A stretch of DNA of 9,606 bases from a virus (Duplodnaviria; Heunggongvirae; Uroviricota; Caudoviricetes). Positions 1 through 6,459 of the stretch are shown here, piece after piece. The first letter of the stretch is position 1, and each line of letters begins with the position of its first letter. The notes beneath the pieces were generated by a model. That model saw nothing but the letters and a program-made list of their open reading frames with translations, was not told the origin of the DNA and did not search any database. The DNA is taken from positions 1 through 9,606 of IMG/VR virus record IMGVR_UViG_2541047901_000004. One strand, written 5' to 3'. Position numbers and translations under genes: made by a program.

Positions 1-1239
1 ATGGGCAGCGCAATTCATAGACTTAGCGATACTTTTTTACGAAAATTAAGCGGATCACCAGCCACAAAAAACGCCTTTTTTAATGACGGTGGCAATCTTA
101 GCGTAAGACATTCCACCAGCGGCCTTTTAACCTGGTATTTCACTTACAGGGCCGGAACTGGTAGGCAGGTATCACCTGAACGTCTGAGGCTGGGCAATTA
201 TCCCGATCTGAGCCTGAAAGCAGCCAGGGAAAAAGCGGCACAGTGTCGCGCCTGGCTGGCGGAGGGGAAAAATCCACGCCATGAGCTTAATCACACAGTG
301 CAGGAAGCGTTATCACCTGTGACGGTTAAGGAAGCGCTCACTTACTGGCTTGAGTCGTATGCGAAGGAAAAGCGCACAGACTACGAATCTCTGAAGAGCC
401 GGATCAATAAACACATAATCAGCCAGATTGGCGCTATGCCGCTGGAGAAATGCGAGCTACGGCACTGGCTGGCCTGTTTTGATCAGATGGCAAAGCTAAG
501 CCCTGTATCTGCCGGATTTTTGCTACAGGTATGCAAGCAGGCGCTTAAATACTGCCGCAAACGTCGCTACGCAATCAGCAACGTTCTTGATGATATGGTT
601 GTCGGTGATGTGGGAAAAAAAGCAGAAGTGAGCGAGCGCGTACTAACAAACAAGGAGCTTGGGGAATTACTCCGCGCCCTGGATGACAAAATATTCCCGC
701 CGTACTACAGCGCTCTGATTCGCCTCCTGATTGTTTTTGGATGCCGTACCACTGAGCTAAGACGCTCTGAGGTGCAGGAGTGGGATTTTAAGGAAATGCT
801 CTGGACAGTGCCGAAGGAGCACAGCAAAACGAAGGTCGCCATATTCAGGCCAATACCGGAAAGCATTTTGCCGTTCGTCACGCAGCTGGTGGAGCAGAAC
901 CGACGCACGGGTTTATTGCTTGGTGAACTGAAAGGGCAATCTTCGGTAGCAGAGTACGGAAGAACAGCGCACAGGCGCATTAATCAAGCCCCCTGGTCGT
1001 TGCATGACATCCGGCACACATTTACAACCATGCTGAACGATTTAGGCGTGGATCCGCATATTGTCGAGCAGCTTACAGCCCACCAGATGCCAGGGATGCA
1101 ACGAGTCTATAACCACTCCCGTTATCTCGATGCGAAACGTGATGCTCTTAATCTATGGGTAGACCGTCTCGAGCTTCTCCAGAACAATGATGAAAAAATC
1201 GTTGTTATGACCCCGCGAATTTACCACCAAAATTCTTGA
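1..1239 (+). CDS. int: Tyrosine site-specific integrase, P4 / IntA-like family
   Basis: 412-aa ORF. N-terminal region shows the P4-integrase pattern (LSDTFLRKL...DGGNLSVRHSTSGLLTWYFTYR). C-terminal catalytic region has HDIRHTFTT (His-x-x-Arg box) and RVYNHSRYLD (candidate catalytic Tyr). The ATG at position 1 leaves a short N-terminal lead typical of the family, so the gene is probably complete, but upstream sequence is not visible. Confidence 0.9.
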   Translation: MGSAIHRLSDTFLRKLSGSPATKNAFFNDGGNLSVRHSTSGLLTWYFTYRAGTGRQVSPERLRLGNYPDLSLKAAREKAAQCRAWLAEGKNPRHELNHTVQEALSPVTVKEALTYWLESYAKEKRTDYESLKSRINKHIISQIGAMPLEKCELRHWLACFDQMAKLSPVSAGFLLQVCKQALKYCRKRRYAISNVLDDMVVGDVGKKAEVSERVLTNKELGELLRALDDKIFPPYYSALIRLLIVFGCRTTELRRSEVQEWDFKEMLWTVPKEHSKTKVAIFRPIPESILPFVTQLVEQNRRTGLLLGELKGQSSVAEYGRTAHRRINQAPWSLHDIRHTFTTMLNDLGVDPHIVEQLTAHQMPGMQRVYNHSRYLDAKRDALNLWVDRLELLQNNDEKIVVMTPRIYHQNS

Positions 1240-1622
1240 CAAATCACGGCTGTTTTTTCTTTAAGAGATTACAGCCGTGAATAAATCGGTAAATATCGAC
1301 AAAATTCGTTGATTTTTTATTTGTCAATCATCGAAAAAATTGAAATGTGCTCTTATTAATCTTTATTTTCTGTTTCTTGATTCTTCCAATGGCTGATTGA
1401 TTTATCTCTTTGTTTTACATTGGATAAATCAGGCGAACTGCCAGATGACGACATTTTTTTGTTGCGTCTCTGAAAAACTCGTGACACGATTTTAAACACT
1501 AACGAGCTTCTACGAACCTTAGCGAACATAGCTTTTGGCAAGGTTGTGTCTTTAATCTAAGAGGTGAAAAATAATTTAAGCTATCTCCGGTCTCATATAT
1601 CTACAGCTAGACAAAAGTTTAT

Positions 1623-1859
1623 ATGCGTAAATTTTATGTAGGTTTTTGTATGCGTGAAATAAATGAAGATCGCGTAATTCGCGAAAAAGAGTGCAGAGAG
1701 CTAACAGGCGTTTGCCGCACAACCCGTTATGAGATGGAAAAGCAAGGTCGGTTTCCTTCCCGCATTAGTCTGGGTGGTCGTTCAGTTGGCTGGGTAAGAT
1801 CTGAGGTTGTTGCATGGGTTAATAACCGTAAGCGTGTCAATGTTGGTAAGACTGCCTGA
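1623..1859 (+). CDS. alpA: AlpA-family small DNA-binding regulator (prophage excision/transcription activator type)
   Basis: 78-aa ORF. The core RVIREKECRELTGVCRTTRYEMEKQGRFPSRISLGGRSVGWVRSEVVAWV matches the AlpA layout (HTH followed by the SVGW motif). An alternative ATG at 1650 would give 69 aa; neither start has a strong SD. Same orientation and position relative to int as in CP4-57-like elements. Confidence 0.75.
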   Translation: MRKFYVGFCMREINEDRVIREKECRELTGVCRTTRYEMEKQGRFPSRISLGGRSVGWVRSEVVAWVNNRKRVNVGKTA

Positions 1860-1872
1860 GGTTGTTGCAATG

Positions 1873-1906
1873 GTACATAAAACAAAGGCGACCGGTGGCG
1901 GTCGCC
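1873..1906 (-). terminator. Intrinsic terminator for the minus-strand small operon
   Basis: Perfect 8-bp GC-rich stem GGCGACCG / CGGTCGCC with a 4-nt loop (1887-1906). On the minus strand it is followed by TTTGTTTTATG (complement of 1873-1886). Confidence 0.55.
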
Positions 1907-1970
1907 AGTGGATACACACTAAACATAAGCCCGTGCATCATAGCGATTTGCTGGCTGGTGGGCAATTTGA

Positions 1971-2159
1971 TCAGTCAGATTCGGTTCGTTCCCAGGTTTG
2001 CAATGAGCGCTTTTCCCTGTACTCTTTAAGGAATTGCTCAAGGGCAAAAGCACATGGCGCGAATCTTTCTGATTCATGCTCTATCTTTCTGCGCCGTCTT
2101 TTCCGTGTCGGTGATAATGTTTTGGTCAATTCTTTATCGGTCATTGTGTTGTCCTGCAT
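1971..2159 (-). CDS. Hypothetical small charged protein (second gene of the minus-strand operon)
   Basis: 62-aa ORF (57 aa from the internal ATG at 2144, which has an AGGA-like SD). Lies between the RHH gene and the minus-strand terminator. No recognisable motif; basic RKRRRRK stretch. Confidence 0.3.
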   Translation of the reverse strand: MQDNTMTDKELTKTLSPTRKRRRRKIEHESERFAPCAFALEQFLKEYREKRSLQTWERTESD

Positions 2160-2201
2160 AGCAATGCGCCGTAGTTACTCACACCACGGCGCTGGTGATG
2201 G

Positions 2202-2381
2202 TTATTCCTGCTCTTTGGCCTTTCGGCGCTGGCGGCGTTTGATCTCACCTTCAAGCGCCGAAACGATAAATTGCCCAGTGCTTTCGCCTTCTTCCTTTAA
2301 ATTTTCTACAGCGTCAGCTATTGCATGGGGTACTCGTGCCTCAAGTTTTTTGGATTTTCCATTAACTGCTTTCGTTGCCAT
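2202..2381 (-). CDS. Small ribbon-helix-helix-like DNA-binding protein (candidate repressor of the element)
   Basis: 59-aa protein from the ATG at 2379-2381 (minus), with AAGGAAA SD 7 nt upstream. MATKAVNGKSKKLEARVPHAIADAVENLKEEGESTGQFIVSALEGEI fits a beta-strand/helix/helix RHH pattern. Divergent from the rightward replication operon. The longer 117-aa version in the ORF track would run into the repeat region and looks non-coding. Confidence 0.55.
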   Translation of the reverse strand: MATKAVNGKSKKLEARVPHAIADAVENLKEEGESTGQFIVSALEGEIKRRQRRKAKEQE

Positions 2382-2402
2382 ATCTGATTTCCTTGTTATT
2401 AG

Positions 2403-2485
2403 GTGGCTGACAGTATACACACAAGAAAATAGAAAAACACTATTGACGTGGCTGACACCTGTCACTAGCATAGTGGCTGACACCT
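2403..2485. promoter_or_regulatory. Divergent promoter/operator region with three direct repeats of GTGGCTGACAC
   Basis: GTGGCTGACA at 2403-2412, GTGGCTGACACCT at 2448-2460 and 2473-2485. Candidate minus-strand -10 TATACT (complement of 2412-2417) preceded by TGTG. Candidate plus-strand -35 TTGACG (2443-2448) and -10 TAGCAT (2466-2471). The repeats overlap both candidate promoters. Confidence 0.45.
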
Positions 2486-2580
2486 TTATTAAGGTAATCG
2501 ATGAAAAGACAAAGCCCGCAGGTGCTACCAACACCAACGGGCTTCTAACCACCAACGATAGCAGAAGTATCGAGGCAGCT

Positions 2581-2784
2581 ATGAGAAATTATACCAGACA
2601 CCCGCAAGGGCGGGACTCGTACAACCTGAATAAATACATCTGGCGTTTTATCGCCCTGAGCACGGCACAACCGCGCGTGATTACCATTGAGGCCACCAGC
2701 GAACAGGAAGCACGCCAGCAATCCCCGGCTGGCTGCGTGATGGTATTCGCCGCCCGTATTCGTCAGGGGGTGAGTCATGCATAA
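2581..2784 (+). CDS. Hypothetical small protein (possible first gene of the rightward operon)
   Basis: 67-aa ORF with GAGG 6 nt upstream of the ATG. Its stop overlaps the next ORF start by 8 nt (GTGAGTCATGCATAA). No recognisable motif; it shares the frame of a long, probably spurious ORF, so coding status is uncertain. Confidence 0.3.
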   Translation: MRNYTRHPQGRDSYNLNKYIWRFIALSTAQPRVITIEATSEQEARQQSPAGCVMVFAARIRQGVSHA

Positions 2785-3004
2785 AATACCCTTTGATGTT
2801 CTTGTTCATTCTGAAAACGCATTAATCCGCGCAAAGGAAATGGACGCATTACTACTTAAGTTAATTGATGTGCCGGAAAGTGGCGATGAATCTGATTCAA
2901 TGATGTTTTCTGCCGTGCGTACGCTATTAACGCCTGTTATTAATGAATTAAATACAGTGATGGCAATTCACGAGAATAATAAAGCGCAGCACACCGGAGA
3001 ATAA
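2777..3004 (+). CDS. Hypothetical small acidic protein
   Basis: 75-aa ORF preceded by GGGGGTGAG. Tightly packed in the operon leading to the replication gene. No motif recognised. Confidence 0.5.
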   Translation: MHKIPFDVLVHSENALIRAKEMDALLLKLIDVPESGDESDSMMFSAVRTLLTPVINELNTVMAIHENNKAQHTGE

Positions 3005-3009
3005 AAAAC

Positions 3010-3291
3010 ATGAAAAATAAAAATTCTGGCGTTACTGCCAGCGGCCCCGCTCGTCCTGAATTTATGAACGGCGATATTTACCGCGATAAATATGGCGGCA
3101 TGGTAACGATTAAAGGCGTGGCAGAACGGCGCATCACCTACCGCCGTGAAGGTTACGAATATGATTGCGTGATGCCTGTTTATCAATTCCGGCGTGATTT
3201 CACGCTGGTGGGCCATCGTAAAGCCGTAAATCAGAAACGTGCAGCAAGTCATATCCGCAAAATCCGTGAAATGCTGGTCGCAGGGGGGTAA
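3010..3291 (+). CDS. Hypothetical small basic protein
   Basis: 93-aa ORF with GGAGA 11 nt upstream. Stops 3 nt before the replication-gene ATG. No motif recognised. Confidence 0.55.
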   Translation: MKNKNSGVTASGPARPEFMNGDIYRDKYGGMVTIKGVAERRITYRREGYEYDCVMPVYQFRRDFTLVGHRKAVNQKRAASHIRKIREMLVAGG

Positions 3292-3294
3292 GAA

Positions 3295-5049
3295 ATGAAA
3301 CTGGCACCGAACGTAAAAAAACAGCCTCGCGGAATAAAACACGAACAAACCGAAGTGATCATTTTTGCGGGTAGTGATGCTTGGTCACACGCGAAACAGT
3401 GGCAGGAACACGACGCGCGTACAGCCGGAGATAATGAGCCTCCTGTGTGGCTTGGAGAGCAGCAGCTATCCGAACTGGATAATCTACAGATTGTACCGGA
3501 AGGCCGAACATACGCTCGTATCTACAGAGCCGGACATCTTGCGCCTGTAATGATTAAGGCGATTGGTCAGAATCTGGCTGCGGCAGGCGTACAGGATGCA
3601 AATTTTTACCCTGAGGGAATGCACGGTAAGAAGGTGGAGAACTGGCGCGAATATCTGGCCCGTGAACGCCAGAATCTTTCTGATGGGCTGGTTATTGAGC
3701 TTCCGGTAAAGCAAAAAATGCAGCTTTCGCAGATGGCGGACAGTGAGCGCGCGCAACTGCTTGTCGATCGCTTTGATAGCGTTTGTGTGCATCCGGAAAG
3801 TGAAATCATCCACGTCTGGCGCGGCGGGGTATGGTGTCCGGTCAGCACAATGGAACTGAGCCGCGAAATGGTGGCGATTTATTCAGAACATAAAGCCACT
3901 TTCAGCAAGCGCGTAATCAGTAACGCCATTGAAGCGTTAAAAGTTATTGCCGAACCAATGGGCGAGCCGTCCGGTGATTTGCTGCCGTTCGCTAATGGCG
4001 TGCTTGACCTGAAAACAGGGGAATTTTCCCCGCACTCGCCTGATAACTGGATCACCACACACAACGGCATTGAGTACACGCCGCCAGTACCAGGGGAGAA
4101 TATCCGCGACAACGCGCCAAACTTTCATAAATGGCTTGATCACGCAGCCGGAAAAGACCCGGGCAAGATGATGCGCATATGTGCCGCGCTATACATGATT
4201 ATGGCGAACCGGTACGACTGGCAGATGTTTATTGAGGCCACAGGAGACGGCGGGAGCGGCAAGAGTACATTTACGCACATAGCCAGCCTTCTGGCAGGGA
4301 AACAGAACACAGTAAGCGCTGAGATGACATCGCTTGATGATGCTGGTGGGCGTGCGCAGGTTGTCGGGAGTCGGCTTATCGTCCTGGCAGACCAGCCGAA
4401 ATATACAGGCGAAGGAACGGGCATCAAGAAAATCACGGGCGGCGACCCCGTGGAAATTAACCCGAAATATGAAAAGCGTTTTACGGCGGTAATCAGGGCG
4501 GTGGTGCTGGCAACCAATAACAATCCGATGATATTCACCGAACGGGCCGGAGGTGTGGCACGTCGTCGGGTGATATTCCGGTTCGATAACATCGTAAGCG
4601 AGGCAGAAAAAGACAGGGAGCTACCGGAAAAGATCGCGGCTGAAATCCCTGTCATTATCCGCCGCTTGCTGGCGAACTTTGCCGACCCTGAAAAGGCACG
4701 GGCTTTACTCATTGAACAGCGTGACGGTGATGAAGCACTGGCAATAAAGCAACAGACGGATCCGGTTATTGAGTTTTGCCAGTTCCTGAATTTTCTGGAG
4801 GAAGCACGCGGCCTGATGATGGGCGGCGGTGGCGATTCAGTGAAGTACACGACCAGAAACAGCCTTTACCGCGTCTATCTGGCGTTTATGGCGTACGCAG
4901 GCAGGAGCAAACCGCTAAACGTAAATGACTTTGGCAAGGCTATGAAGCCAGCTGCGAAAGTTTACGGACATGAATATATTACGCGGAAAGTTAAGGGAGT
5001 AACGCAGACTAACGCAATAACAACAGACGAGTGCGACGCGTTTTTATAA
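3295..5049 (+). CDS. Replication initiator: D5_N-like region plus SF3 (P4 alpha / D5-type) helicase with C-terminal domain
   Basis: 584 aa, GGGGGG SD 6 nt upstream. Walker A GDGGSGKST (about 4243-4269), Walker B RLIVLADQ, motif C VVLATNNNP. Upstream LPFANGVLDLKTGEFSPH resembles the D5_N region of phage/plasmid primase-helicases. The N-terminal ~230 aa could not be assigned to a primase fold by eye. Confidence 0.85.
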   Translation: MKLAPNVKKQPRGIKHEQTEVIIFAGSDAWSHAKQWQEHDARTAGDNEPPVWLGEQQLSELDNLQIVPEGRTYARIYRAGHLAPVMIKAIGQNLAAAGVQDANFYPEGMHGKKVENWREYLARERQNLSDGLVIELPVKQKMQLSQMADSERAQLLVDRFDSVCVHPESEIIHVWRGGVWCPVSTMELSREMVAIYSEHKATFSKRVISNAIEALKVIAEPMGEPSGDLLPFANGVLDLKTGEFSPHSPDNWITTHNGIEYTPPVPGENIRDNAPNFHKWLDHAAGKDPGKMMRICAALYMIMANRYDWQMFIEATGDGGSGKSTFTHIASLLAGKQNTVSAEMTSLDDAGGRAQVVGSRLIVLADQPKYTGEGTGIKKITGGDPVEINPKYEKRFTAVIRAVVLATNNNPMIFTERAGGVARRRVIFRFDNIVSEAEKDRELPEKIAAEIPVIIRRLLANFADPEKARALLIEQRDGDEALAIKQQTDPVIEFCQFLNFLEEARGLMMGGGGDSVKYTTRNSLYRVYLAFMAYAGRSKPLNVNDFGKAMKPAAKVYGHEYITRKVKGVTQTNAITTDECDAFL

Positions 5050-5063
5050 TTTTTTGTAATTGC

Positions 5064-5289
5064 TGTCTACCCTGTCTACCTGAGTAAATAAAAATACATT
5101 TAATTCAGTGCATTAAGTTAGGTAGATAGCCTTTTTTTACTGTCTACCCACTATCTCCCCTCTCTACCTGATTTTACCTGAATCAGACAGGGAGGTAGAC
5201 ACGGGGTAGATAGTGGATAAAAGCACTCTACCCCGCTGAAAGCCGCGCCATTACTGGCATGAGGGCCACTAAGGTAGATAAGGTAGACA
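5064..5289. repeat. Iteron cluster, putative origin of replication
   Basis: Octamer GGTAGAYA and its complement TGTCTACC at 5064, 5073, 5141 (TGTCTACC) and 5121, 5194, 5205, 5273, 5282 (GGTAGAYA), plus degenerate copies near 5151, 5162 and 5226. Opposite orientations flank an AT-rich core (5081-5120). Sits immediately 3' of the helicase gene. Confidence 0.65.
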
Positions 5290-5337
5290 AGGGGAGGCAC
5301 AACTCAAAACTTTTTAAACGAGGGGGTAAAAATAAAT

Positions 5338-5616
5338 ATGCACACTTCAGGGAAATTTAATAAATCACTCAAAAAACGCAGAGACAGAACAGAACCGAAA
5401 TATCGCGCGTTAGACATGACAGAGCACGCTTTAAAGGTGGCAATCAGAACGATAGACCGCCACGCGGGGGAAGGATACGCGAAAGCACATCCCGAACTGA
5501 TAAGCGCATTCATGACCACGACGGCGGCAAATTTTGCCACGCTGACAGAGCGGGAGATTGCCGAAGCGGAACAGGTAACAACCATCAACGTTAAAACCGG
5601 AGAGCAGACAGCATGA
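5338..5616 (+). CDS. Hypothetical protein, translationally coupled to the SSB-like gene
   Basis: 92-aa ORF with GAGGGGG SD. Its stop overlaps the next start in ATGA (5613-5616). No motif recognised. Confidence 0.5.
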   Translation: MHTSGKFNKSLKKRRDRTEPKYRALDMTEHALKVAIRTIDRHAGEGYAKAHPELISAFMTTTAANFATLTEREIAEAEQVTTINVKTGEQTA

Positions 5617-6035
5617 CAGCACAGATAGCGGCTTACGGGCGGCTGGTGGCTGACCCGCAGTTAAAGACCACCAGCAAAGGGACACAAATGGCGATGGCGA
5701 GTATGGCGGTTCCCCTGCCGTGCAGCCAGGCAGATGACGGAACGGCGACAATGTGGTTATCCGTTCTGGCGTTTGGTAGGCAGGCCGACGCACTGGCAAA
5801 ACACCACAAAGGCGAACTGGTGAGCGTGGCGGGTAACATGCAGGTAAGCCAGTGGACAGGCCAGAACGGCGAAATACGGCAGGGCTGGCAGGTTATCGCA
5901 GACAGTGTAATCAGTGCCAGAACGGCGCGACCAGGTGGTAAAAAAGGCCAACAGGGGCAGGCCACTGACGCACTGAACAGGGCAAAACAACAGGCGGGAA
6001 ATGATGATCCGTACGGGGATAACATACCGTTTTAA
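5613..6035 (+). CDS. ssb: Short single-stranded-DNA-binding (SSB)-like protein with conserved C-terminal IPF tip
   Basis: 140 aa. The OB-fold region aligns by eye to E. coli SSB (GRLVADPQLK...TQMAMASMAV ; WLSVLAFGRQADALAKHHKGELVSVAGNMQVSQWTGQNGEIRQGWQVIADSV). The C-terminus DDPYGDNIPF resembles the SSB tail DFDDDIPF. The Gly/Gln-rich linker is much shorter than in host SSB. Confidence 0.8.
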   Translation: MTAQIAAYGRLVADPQLKTTSKGTQMAMASMAVPLPCSQADDGTATMWLSVLAFGRQADALAKHHKGELVSVAGNMQVSQWTGQNGEIRQGWQVIADSVISARTARPGGKKGQQGQATDALNRAKQQAGNDDPYGDNIPF

Positions 6036-6051
6036 GCAACGAGTAACAGAG

Positions 6052-6073
6052 GCCGGAGCAATCCGGCTTTTTT
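6052..6073 (+). terminator. Intrinsic terminator after the replication/SSB operon
   Basis: Stem GCCGGA / TCCGGC with loop GCAA, followed by TTTTTT (6068-6073), 17 nt after the ssb stop. Confidence 0.6.
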
Positions 6074-6074
6074 A

Positions 6075-6144
6075 CGGGTCCTCCCGGTGTAGTGACCTGC
6101 CACGGGGCGGGAGCGGCGCGGAAAAAGGCTGGTTTTTGCATTTT
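6075..6144 (+). repeat. Copy 1 of a 70-bp conserved element (putative late-operon regulatory site)
   Basis: CGGGTCCTCCCGGTGTAGTGACCTGCCACGGGGCGGGAGCGGCGCGGAAAAAGGCTGGTTTTTGCATTTT. Matches 8611-8680 at 68 of 70 positions. Contains an imperfect dyad (CTCCCG ... CGGGAG). Confidence 0.8.
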
Positions 6145-6191
6145 CATGGCGGCGGCAGCATGTGTGATAATTTATTGATAATTAAAAATTA

Positions 6192-6292
6192 TTTCTGTTT
6201 TCACCTGTACAATATTTTTTTCTCCCTGTCATTAGATCAGTTTGCAATTAATTGAAATATATAAATAAATCTGTTTTTCACCTGCCAGGTGG
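6192..6292. promoter_or_regulatory. Leader region with direct repeats TCTGTTTT(T)CACCTG and a CACCTG-C-CAGGTG palindrome
   Basis: TCTGTTTTCACCTG at 6194-6207 and TCTGTTTTTCACCTG at 6270-6284. Perfect inverted repeat CACCTGcCAGGTG at 6279-6291. Extended -10-like TGTGATAAT at 6163-6171 lies upstream. Confidence 0.3.
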
Positions 6293-6334
6293 AGTTGCCT
6301 GTGTCAAAACGTGTTCAGATGGCGGGATATTTAT

Positions 6335-6357
6335 GCCGGATTTTCTCCGGCTTTTTT
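6335..6357 (+). terminator. Intrinsic terminator/attenuator inside the leader of the capsid operon
   Basis: Stem GCCGGA / TCCGGC (same arms as the 6052 terminator) with loop TTTTC, followed by TTTTTT (6352-6357). Lies about 100 nt upstream of the next start codon. Confidence 0.45.
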
Positions 6358-6459
6358 GTGTCTGAATCTTATTAATCTATTTTTATGATAGAAATATGTT
6401 TATCTACCACTTTTATCGATCAATAATGTGCACAGTTTAGTCAGTAAGAGGAAGTTACT

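Follow-up and report, generated by a model that had tools for sequence, protein, structure and literature searches.

A candidate ribbon-helix-helix repressor with matched operators at the control locus of a Gram-negative phage-inducible chromosomal island

Closest described systems and the control locus

The published control model for Gram-negative phage-inducible chromosomal islands (PICIs) contains an activator only, AlpA, and the founding paper called a global repressor in these islands 'unclear' and the phage inducer unknown (PMC6092414). We analysed a 9,606-nt stretch of DNA, hereafter the window (positions 1 to 9,606 of IMG/VR record IMGVR_UViG_2541047901_000004), focusing on its control locus, where a minus-strand gene for a 59-aa ribbon-helix-helix (RHH) protein of the YlcI/YnfO type faces three short repeats and a rightward replication operon. 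From comparison with related loci we consider it likely that this protein is the transcriptional repressor of the island, acting on the replication operon and on itself. A first-pass annotation of the window had proposed a repressor with operators controlling the rightward operon, and this proposal is well supported by the co-variation and the site positions described below. RHH repressors acting on operators at immunity-like switches are a well-known kind of system; new here are the assignment of such a system to the YlcI/YnfO family and to Gram-negative PICIs, a specificity table of more than 25 classes, and an associated leader RNA. No link between PICIs and an RHH or YlcI repressor was found in the openly searchable full-text literature, which leaves subscription-only papers outside it, and the papers on EcCICFT073, capsid-forming PICIs (cf-PICIs), EcCIMP1 and HE-PICI make no mention of such a repressor. 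Within the same searchable literature YlcI/YnfO appeared as an annotation label only, with no function described. A prior description in subscription-only literature is possible.

In the immI region of phage P22, the RHH repressors Mnt and Arc act at the divergent promoters P_mnt and P_ant. As RHH repressors at divergent promoters they are among the closest mechanistic parallels to the present locus, but no sequence relationship was detectable, and the P22 operator is a single symmetric site of 17-21 bp whereas here an 11-bp GTG-N5-CAC unit stands in three separate copies. The controlled operon also differs, containing icd and replication genes rather than an antirepressor, and the element is a satellite rather than a phage. 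A second parallel is offered by the Stl proteins, which are larger helix-turn-helix proteins. The stl (rpr) gene of Staphylococcus aureus pathogenicity islands (SaPIs) and other Gram-positive PICIs occupies the same place on the map, divergent from the xis/pri-rep operon (PMC6092414), and Stl has the same job as is proposed here, keeping the island silent until a helper phage acts. Helper-phage proteins inactivate Stl by complex formation (PMC6092414). In the present locus the fold is RHH, and Gram-negative PICIs additionally need AlpA. Membership of the Stl family is excluded and the role is analogous only.

CopG of plasmid pMV158 (PMC2724298) is likewise an RHH protein whose dimer sits on a short pseudo-symmetric element overlapping the promoter hexamers of a replication-initiator operon. 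The copG gene shares a transcript with the gene under its control and serves copy-number control, whereas the RHH gene here is divergent and falls into many specificity classes. The satellite P4 with its CI RNA, and the c4-icd-ant region of P1 (PMC10111431), share with this locus an icd-like open reading frame (ORF) behind a structured leader at the start of an early or replication operon. The leader found here differs in that it matches neither the C4 nor the isrK family of Rfam and its model does not find P4; unlike in P4, a protein repressor appears to take part in the control of this locus.

The features of the control locus are listed below.

2202-2381, minus strand: RHH gene, candidate repressor (ATG at 2381, stop at 2202), 59 aa, YlcI/YnfO family
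2403-2413: O_L, GTGGCTGACAG, candidate operator over the -10/+1 of the leftward promoter
2412-2417 (plus-strand numbering), minus strand: -10 hexamer TATACT of the leftward promoter P_L, by consensus match only, overlapping O_L by 2 nt
2443-2471, plus strand: predicted rightward promoter P_R (TTGACG 2443-2448, 17 nt, TAGCAT 2466-2471), from a consensus scan, 9/12 match
2448-2460: O_R1, GTGGCTGACACCT (11-mer core GTGGCTGACAC at 2448-2458), candidate operator in the P_R spacer
2473-2485: O_R2, GTGGCTGACACCT (11-mer core GTGGCTGACAC at 2473-2483), candidate operator over the predicted +1 of P_R
1877-1906, minus strand: intrinsic terminator of the leftward unit (stem 1887-1906, U-tract 1877-1886), from a terminator scan

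Three direct repeats facing the minus-strand unit, their overlap with both divergent promoters and a terminator belonging to that unit had all been pointed out before, and each was recovered. The 11-mers begin at 2403, 2448 and 2473, with O_L on the -10/+1 of P_L, O_R1 in the spacer of P_R and O_R2 at its +1, and the hairpin at 1887-1906 has its U-tract on the minus strand. O_R1 begins at the final base of the P_R -35 and fills the spacer, and P_R is placed before icd-orf75-DUF4222-primase. These are classic repressor positions on two back-to-back sigma-70-like promoters. The terminator stem folds at -16.6 kcal/mol (z = -4.6). Only on the minus strand does UUUGUUUUAU come after it, the plus-strand stem being followed by AGUGGA; at the equivalent position the prototype island EcCICFT073 has a different stem and then the same TTTGTTTT. 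Within the window, matches to the 11-mer at up to 2 mismatches numbered 5 against 1.84 expected, and 5 of 200 shuffles reached that count. These window-internal statistics are weak, and the case therefore rests on the comparison with related loci, by which the repeats become highly significant.

The RHH gene is preceded by a Shine-Dalgarno (SD) sequence, AAGGAA (2389-2394), 7 nt upstream of its ATG. Residues 9-50 of the product matched NCBIfam NF041551 (YlcI/YnfO) with 61.9 bits (cutoff 30; E = 4.2e-17), an identical RefSeq protein (WP_000201464) carries the same family name, and a further match was obtained to PHROG 949 (unknown function). No Pfam family was matched at E<=0.1, and hence not Pfam DUF3950 (PF13132), which is matched by YlcI of Escherichia coli K-12 and by a cf-PICI variant; a comparison with the sequences of the PDB gave no match either. 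The protein shows the pattern of the RHH (MetJ/Arc/CopG) superfamily, an N-terminal beta-strand and two helices with a G-x-S/T/N turn between them. Alignment of 23-31 homologues revealed an invariant K9-S10 ... R16 frame around the variable residues 11-15, a G-E-S-T turn and an invariant E-I-K-R-R-Q-R tail. The protein ends in a 10-residue basic tail, beyond which it has no C-terminal toxin-binding extension. Longer YlcI/YnfO variants of 101 aa were observed in two loci (L072 3743-4048 and L076 2362-2667); they are extended by helical sequence at the C-terminus, and the layout with three operators is retained.

The YlcI/YnfO family is small, with 92 representatives at 50% clustering, and tblastn of the RHH protein and of ORF62, the longer form of the small ORF described below, against 50,697 phage records found no match. 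YlcI of the K-12 prophage DLP12 (L079 152-346) belongs to the same NF041551 family and has the same strand/helix/G-x-S/helix pattern at 22% identity, but its gene is divergent from nohD across the cos region, which is a packaging context, and not at an immunity region. The K-12 proteins YlcI/YnfO (DLP12, Qin) are without an assigned operator, and the record names YlcI only as a DUF3950-domain protein. Because K-12 YlcI lies in a packaging and not an immunity context, the family may have more than one role.

Related loci and the co-variation of operators with the beta-strand

When a single genome of each species was scanned, 66 loci with RHH relatives were obtained outside E. coli, drawn from more than 20 genera (including Pectobacterium, Yersinia, Xenorhabdus, Serratia, Proteus, Kosakonia and Edwardsiella), and 80 IMG/VR contigs were analysed of the 343 having relatives. 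Across Enterobacterales genomes and IMG/VR, about 140 related satellites showed the same architecture, as did EcCICFT073; a related RHH-bearing element has also been deposited as the 'induced prophage' vB_KppS-Ant. In these loci the order of int, alpA, a variable gap, the opposite-strand RHH gene and a divergent icd-like/DUF4222/primase operon is conserved. Between the stop codons of the RHH gene and alpA the gap measures 110 nt to 1.8 kb (L004-L069). Long gaps hold genes of BRO-N, AntA or Rha-like (antirepressor) type, which run in the direction of alpA and not of the RHH gene.

When the loci were anchored on the RHH start codon, about 20 nt were followed by an 11-mer (usually GTG-N5-CAG) and then by a near-invariant TATAC, which overlaps the end of this first 11-mer and, with the last two bases of that 11-mer, forms the leftward -10 TATACT on the other strand. 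Next come some 27 nt rich in A and then TTGAC/A, the final base of which is also the first of the second 11-mer; a TAnnnT hexamer follows, and after it the third 11-mer, direct or inverted and 22-36 bp from the second depending on the specificity class. The offset of O_L from the RHH ATG is -31 in nearly all relatives. TTGA(C/A) occupies the P_R -35 position in 63 of the 67 genome loci having enough upstream sequence, and the P_L -10 reads TATACT (or CATACT/TATAAT) in all distinct related sequences (52/52). One decayed element, that of Xenorhabdus japonica (L017), has its primase and integrase genes split, and a deletion upstream of 4001 has fused O_L to the region after O_R2 so that both promoters are gone.

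Within a locus, the inner bases of all 11-mers vary in concert with one another and with RHH residues 11-16, while the flanking -35 and -10 elements are constant. More than 25 specificity classes were distinguished among the genome loci and IMG/VR contigs, each beta-strand having its own 11-mer. The following pairs are given as residues 11-16 and operator.

KKLEAR / RKLEAR: operator GTGGCTGACAC
KRFDVR: operator GTGTC(C/G)GACAC
QTVAAR / QTIAAR: operator GTGTT(T/C)AACAC
QQLNAR: operator GTGCGATTCAC
LQVSVR: operator GTGGTGTTCAC
QKMSAR: operator (G/C/A)TGGGTGCCAG
K/QKMQAR: operator GTGGAGCACAC
QMTTVR: operator GTGTATTTCAC
QSLKSR (L024): operator GTGGGCCACAC

The remaining classes obey the same rule. 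The IMG/VR contigs (80) reproduced the code and contributed the new classes KRIDAR, QSVTAR, KKIDVR and QKLQAR.

Co-variation was assessed with a permutation test using one representative per beta-strand class (23 classes). O_R1 and O_R2 differed by 0.74 mismatches within a locus and by 3.34 between loci, and O_L differed from the O_R sites by 2.3 mismatches in its own locus and by 4.1 in other loci (permutation p<=1e-5 in both cases). The operator was shared by 91% of locus pairs with an identical beta-strand hexapeptide, compared with 0.9% of pairs with a different strand. Among pairs at least 70% identical in AlpA, Int, Pri or Icd but different in the beta-strand, it was shared in 1-8%. Spearman correlation with operator identity did not exceed |rho| = 0.11 for AlpA, Int, Pri and Icd, and was 0.40-0.42 for the RHH protein. 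Individual comparisons follow the same line. The window and the Xenorhabdus loci have KKLEAR and GTGGCTGACAC in common with AlpA proteins only about 45% identical, and one operator was found alongside AlpA proteins just 25-50% identical. The sister island in L002 is 97% identical to the window in Int and 93% in Icd, with an RHH protein 61% identical and a different operator, GTGTTCAACAC. Linkage alone is not the explanation, because the operator tracks the beta-strand and not the similarity of AlpA, Int, Pri or Icd. Taken together these comparisons are strong indirect evidence that the RHH protein reads the 11-mers through its beta-strand. As in phage-type immunity regions, operator copies lie on both divergent promoters, and matched repressor/operator classes occur among relatives.

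EcCICFT073 was outside the first set of loci. Its control region (L077; NC_004431 1379525-1381052) contains a homologue of the small ORF, a YlcI/YnfO RHH gene, three operators, the leader and icd. Its RHH protein has QALKAR, and the operators are GTGGGGGACAG once and GTGGGCCACAC twice, the latter being the operator already seen with QSLKSR. The first-pass annotation had held that the unit sets this island apart from the classical AlpA-only PICIs; the presence of the same unit in the prototype contradicts this, and the RHH/operator unit is an overlooked conserved component, not a deviation. The RefSeq locus tags of the CFT073 RHH gene (C_RS30120) and of the small ORF homologue are out of series with those of their neighbours, which suggests that both small genes were added only on re-annotation. 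The unit was probably overlooked in EcCICFT073 because its 59-codon gene was apparently added so late.

The small ORF, the leader RNA and the rest of the island

The further features of the leftward unit and of the start of the rightward operon are as follows.

1971-2144, minus strand (open frame 1971-2159): ORF57, or ORF62 from the first ATG, small basic protein
2166-2192, minus strand: 10-bp hairpin (inverted repeat) between the RHH stop and the ORF57 start
2494-2596, plus strand: icd leader RNA with two hairpins, between O_R2 and icd
2514-2542, plus strand: SL1, a 10-bp bulged hairpin of the leader, followed by single-stranded CUAACCACCAAC
2556-2572, plus strand: SL2, a 5-bp hairpin that holds or abuts the SD sequence GAGG (2572-2575)
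2581-2784, plus strand: icd-like gene (NF033153, E = 1.5e-19; phrog_6196), first gene of the operon

The second ATG, at 2144, is the most likely start of ORF57 (57 aa), with AGGA 7 nt upstream and most homologues 57 aa long. Homologues came from E. coli only and fell into 31 protein clusters; aligned, they show in-frame indels and share a conserved core, ERFAPCAFALEQFLKEY. Their ratio of non-synonymous to synonymous change (dN/dS) was 0.17-0.58, and third-position changes numbered 285 against 190 and 178 at the other positions; judged by its pattern of substitution, ORF57 is a real gene. It is probably co-transcribed with the RHH gene. The hairpin between the two genes folds at -20.2 kcal/mol but has a z of only -1.9 and no clear U-tract behind it; it is kept in L002 and L071 and is possibly an attenuator or stabiliser. 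An AlphaFold2 (AF2) model of ORF57 has a disordered basic N-terminus and one long helix, with a predicted local distance difference test score (pLDDT) of 72, and is thus of low confidence. ORF57 gave no match in Pfam, NCBIfam or PADLOC, its sole family match being PHROG phrog_21027 (function not assigned), and none of the small proteins of the island matched a defence function in PADLOC.

ORF57 was absent from all 66 of the non-E. coli loci carrying the RHH gene, and we regard it as cargo specific to that lineage and expressed together with the repressor. The rexAB genes of phage lambda occupy a comparable position beside a repressor. Small ORFs just downstream of the RHH gene in other genera were set aside, as they are mutually unrelated, unrelated to ORF62 and probably not genes. 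Another candidate explanation, that ORF62 is an antisense artefact of a decayed plus-strand BRO-N/antirepressor gene (in L002 the prokaryotic genome annotation pipeline, PGAP, has 'BRO-N ... incomplete'), was excluded. The plus-strand translation has no Pfam BRO match and is unlike the BRO/AntA/Rha-like ORFs of relatives (E >= 0.05), and the minus frame is under purifying selection.

The roxA/pepT island of E. coli O157:H7 DEC4E (L071) has a different 57-aa RHH protein (MSTPLEKRSPPYQMRLPEDF...) in the YlcI-type slot (3743-3916, minus strand), which scores below threshold with both the Arc and the YlcI models and has palindromic repeats of its own, CATGGTAATTACC x2 (3914-3960). Behind this gene lies the same ORF57, and opposite it are the same leader and icd. 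The repressor slot is thus an exchangeable module, since a different RHH gene is combined with the same ORF57, leader and icd.

In an alignment of the leader from 33 loci, 92.9% of cells were paired as against 28-40% in slid controls, compensatory changes were found in 12 of 15 pairs, and none of 500 shuffles reached the observed values. A covariance model built on the leader scored the window copy at 77 bits and found copies in 38 of 41 other sequences searched (53-101 bits), including the O157 island and the cf-PICI deposited as 'phage vB_KppS-Ant'; it did not find P4. Two copies of the leader RNA were observed in L076. A previous survey reported C4 and isrK RNAs in some PICIs. Neither Rfam family was found, whether in the whole window (E<=1), in 2380-2640 (E<=10) or in 17 related loci (gathering score), and no Rfam family fell at the leader positions. 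The only hit in the control region, a sub-threshold SymR-like match on the antisense strand (23.7 bits against a gathering score of 61), was treated as chance. The leader may be analogous to the RNAs of RNA immunity or may control the translation of icd. The P4 homologue of the Icd-like ORF is the C-terminal 66 aa of the old 'cI' coding sequence (CDS), just downstream of the CI RNA, and the PHROG label 'transcriptional repressor' on Icd-like proteins arises because this homologue lies inside that obsolete CDS. Against the 50,697 phage records the Icd-like protein had one match only, the cf-PICI deposited as a phage.

The remainder of the window contains the following features.

1-1239: int, first gene of the island order
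About 1650-1859: alpA (PF05930), convergent with the RHH unit
Between the icd-like gene and the primase gene: orf75, then a DUF4222 gene
3295-5049: P4-type primase/helicase
5057-5294: iterons AGGTAGA(T/C)A and complement, two opposed sets around an AT-rich centre, directly 3' of the primase gene
Downstream of the iterons, in this order: genes for a single-stranded DNA-binding protein (SSB), a ClpP-protease/major-capsid fusion and a DUF1441 small terminase

Gram-negative PICIs are defined by int, alpA, pri-rep followed by an origin (ori), a size of about 10-15 kb and a specific att site (Fillol-Salom 2018). The island agrees with this definition, and its gene order is that of the prototype EcCICFT073. 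Judged by this gene content, the layout of the window is that of a Gram-negative PICI, and the iterons would be the expected PICI replication origin. The 9.6 kb of the window are 100% identical to an island of about 10 kb at yljB/cspD–clpS in E. coli IrN and 3 other strains, and the region has matches in 1,801 of 5,426 complete E. coli genomes. The RHH gene and its small neighbour had been described as the only minus-strand genes of the window; PGAP/RefSeq also annotates 6400-6573 on that strand.

Several further elements were observed. A 325-codon open frame (1807-2784, plus strand) runs antisense across ORF57, the RHH gene and the operators into icd and is almost certainly spurious. RefSeq calls pieces of this antisense frame in relatives 'pseudo' or over-long 'Icd-like' CDSs (L002 3785-4189; L071 3300-3893), and the control region is thereby obscured. 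The 5' end of alpA has two direct repeats spaced 27 bp apart, TTTATATGCGTAAA (1618-1631) and TTTGTATGCGTGAA (1645-1658), as candidates for promoter elements or for sites of AlpA autoregulation. In the gap between the SSB gene and the capsid operon, two AT-rich direct repeats of 39 nt (6169-6207 and 6246-6284; 72% identical, 77 nt apart) could be a late promoter or a packaging-related site. The int-alpA RNA motif (RF02996) was observed in 6 of the 17 related loci scanned, with none in the window.

The proposed switch and its alternatives

In the switch that we propose, a dimer of the RHH protein would insert its two-stranded beta-sheet (residues ~9-17, K-S-K-K-L-E-A-R-V) into the major groove of GTG-GCTGA-CAC. 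Occupation of O_R1, between the -35 and -10, and of O_R2, over the +1, would block P_R, so that in the integrated island icd, DUF4222, the P4-type primase/helicase and the genes beyond them stay silent. O_L, abutting the P_L -10, would provide negative autoregulation of the RHH gene, and the leftward transcript would carry ORF57 as an accessory gene and end at the terminator 1887-1906. With its own beta-strand/operator pair, each satellite lineage could fall into immunity or compatibility groups among co-resident satellites, in the manner of lambdoid immunity regions. Binding, the direction of regulation, the promoter elements used and the bypass by AlpA or a helper phage are all points that we infer.

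Some observations weigh against a repressor role of this kind. RHH proteins can also activate, as do Mnt and AmrZ, and the sign of regulation at P_L is uncertain. The -10 of P_L is good but its T-rich -35 is poor, so that this promoter may be weak or aided by another factor; the consensus promoter scan did not pick it up. In EcCICFT073 AlpA activates its own gene and downstream island genes (ORF3 reporter fusion), is required for induction and, when over-expressed, suffices for induction and runaway replication (PMC6092414); any block by the RHH protein must therefore be surmountable. Because alpA converges on the RHH unit and the U-tract of 1887-1906 serves the minus strand only, AlpA-boosted transcription of alpA could read through 1887-1906, disturb RHH expression and enter the replication operon.

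The effect of AlpA in EcCICFT073, where it is both necessary and sufficient for induction (PMC6092414), would also fit an RHH protein made only after induction, either as a Cro-like lytic-phase regulator or as a CopG-like regulator of copy number, with quiescence due solely to the absence of AlpA. CopG of pMV158 is after all an RHH protein that throttles a rep promoter, and the weak -35 of P_L suggests low basal expression. We nevertheless consider this account unlikely, as Cro and CopG are the first genes of the operons they control, whereas the RHH gene has a promoter of its own, apparently autoregulated, and points away from the replication operon, which is the geometry of CI, Stl and Mnt, and more than 25 specificity classes are the pattern of immunity repressors. 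The repeats might instead be sites for AlpA, the integrase or the primase/initiator, or be iterons, their association with the RHH gene reflecting mere linkage. They do adjoin the RHH gene, shared descent alone yields some correlation, and AlpA is an activator of downstream island genes in the reporter fusion cited above. We give this explanation very little chance, since operator identity follows the RHH protein and not AlpA, Int, Pri or Icd, the same operator accompanies widely different AlpA proteins, and the copies in a locus change together while the -35 and -10 interspersed with them stay constant. Iterons of the putative origin lie elsewhere, 3' of the primase gene at 5057-5294, and the GTGGCTGACAC repeats are therefore not the ori.

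The first-pass annotation had also raised a toxin/antitoxin or repressor/antirepressor pair formed by the RHH protein and the small ORF, in which case the repeats would be only the RHH protein's own operator. This suggestion is not supported by the comparison and is in our view highly improbable. ORF57 is confined to E. coli and is absent from 66 loci that keep the RHH gene and operators, where the RHH stop can be just 110 nt from the convergent alpA, and in the O157:H7 island it follows a different RHH gene. The RHH protein has no toxin-binding C-terminal extension beyond its short basic tail, ORF57 matches no toxin family and has a predicted structure with just one helix, and two of the three operators are on the promoter of the opposite operon. 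Neither the conserved pairing of a type II toxin-antitoxin system nor its combination of a toxin family with an antitoxin C-terminal domain was found.

Beyond the repressor role proposed for this island, the YlcI-type RHH protein might be the missing master repressor of Gram-negative PICIs and cf-PICIs at large, a counterpart of Stl, an extension that we put forward tentatively and rate as possible rather than probable. Removal or bypass of the protein would then be the real induction step, through a helper-phage protein that inactivates it or through AlpA-driven antisense read-through; the operator classes would be satellite immunity groups and the leader a second, RNA layer.

Gram-negative PICIs and cf-PICIs are abundant in Enterobacterales and move virulence and defence genes between cells, and a candidate RHH repressor with matched operators is a concrete, testable component of their control. 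The natural table of beta-strand-to-DNA recognition, with more than 25 pairs on one scaffold, is useful for the study of RHH specificity and for orthogonal synthetic repressors. The operator classes also offer a way to sort satellites into immunity groups and, if the role of master repressor is true, the 25+ classes would decide which satellites coexist in or superinfect a cell.

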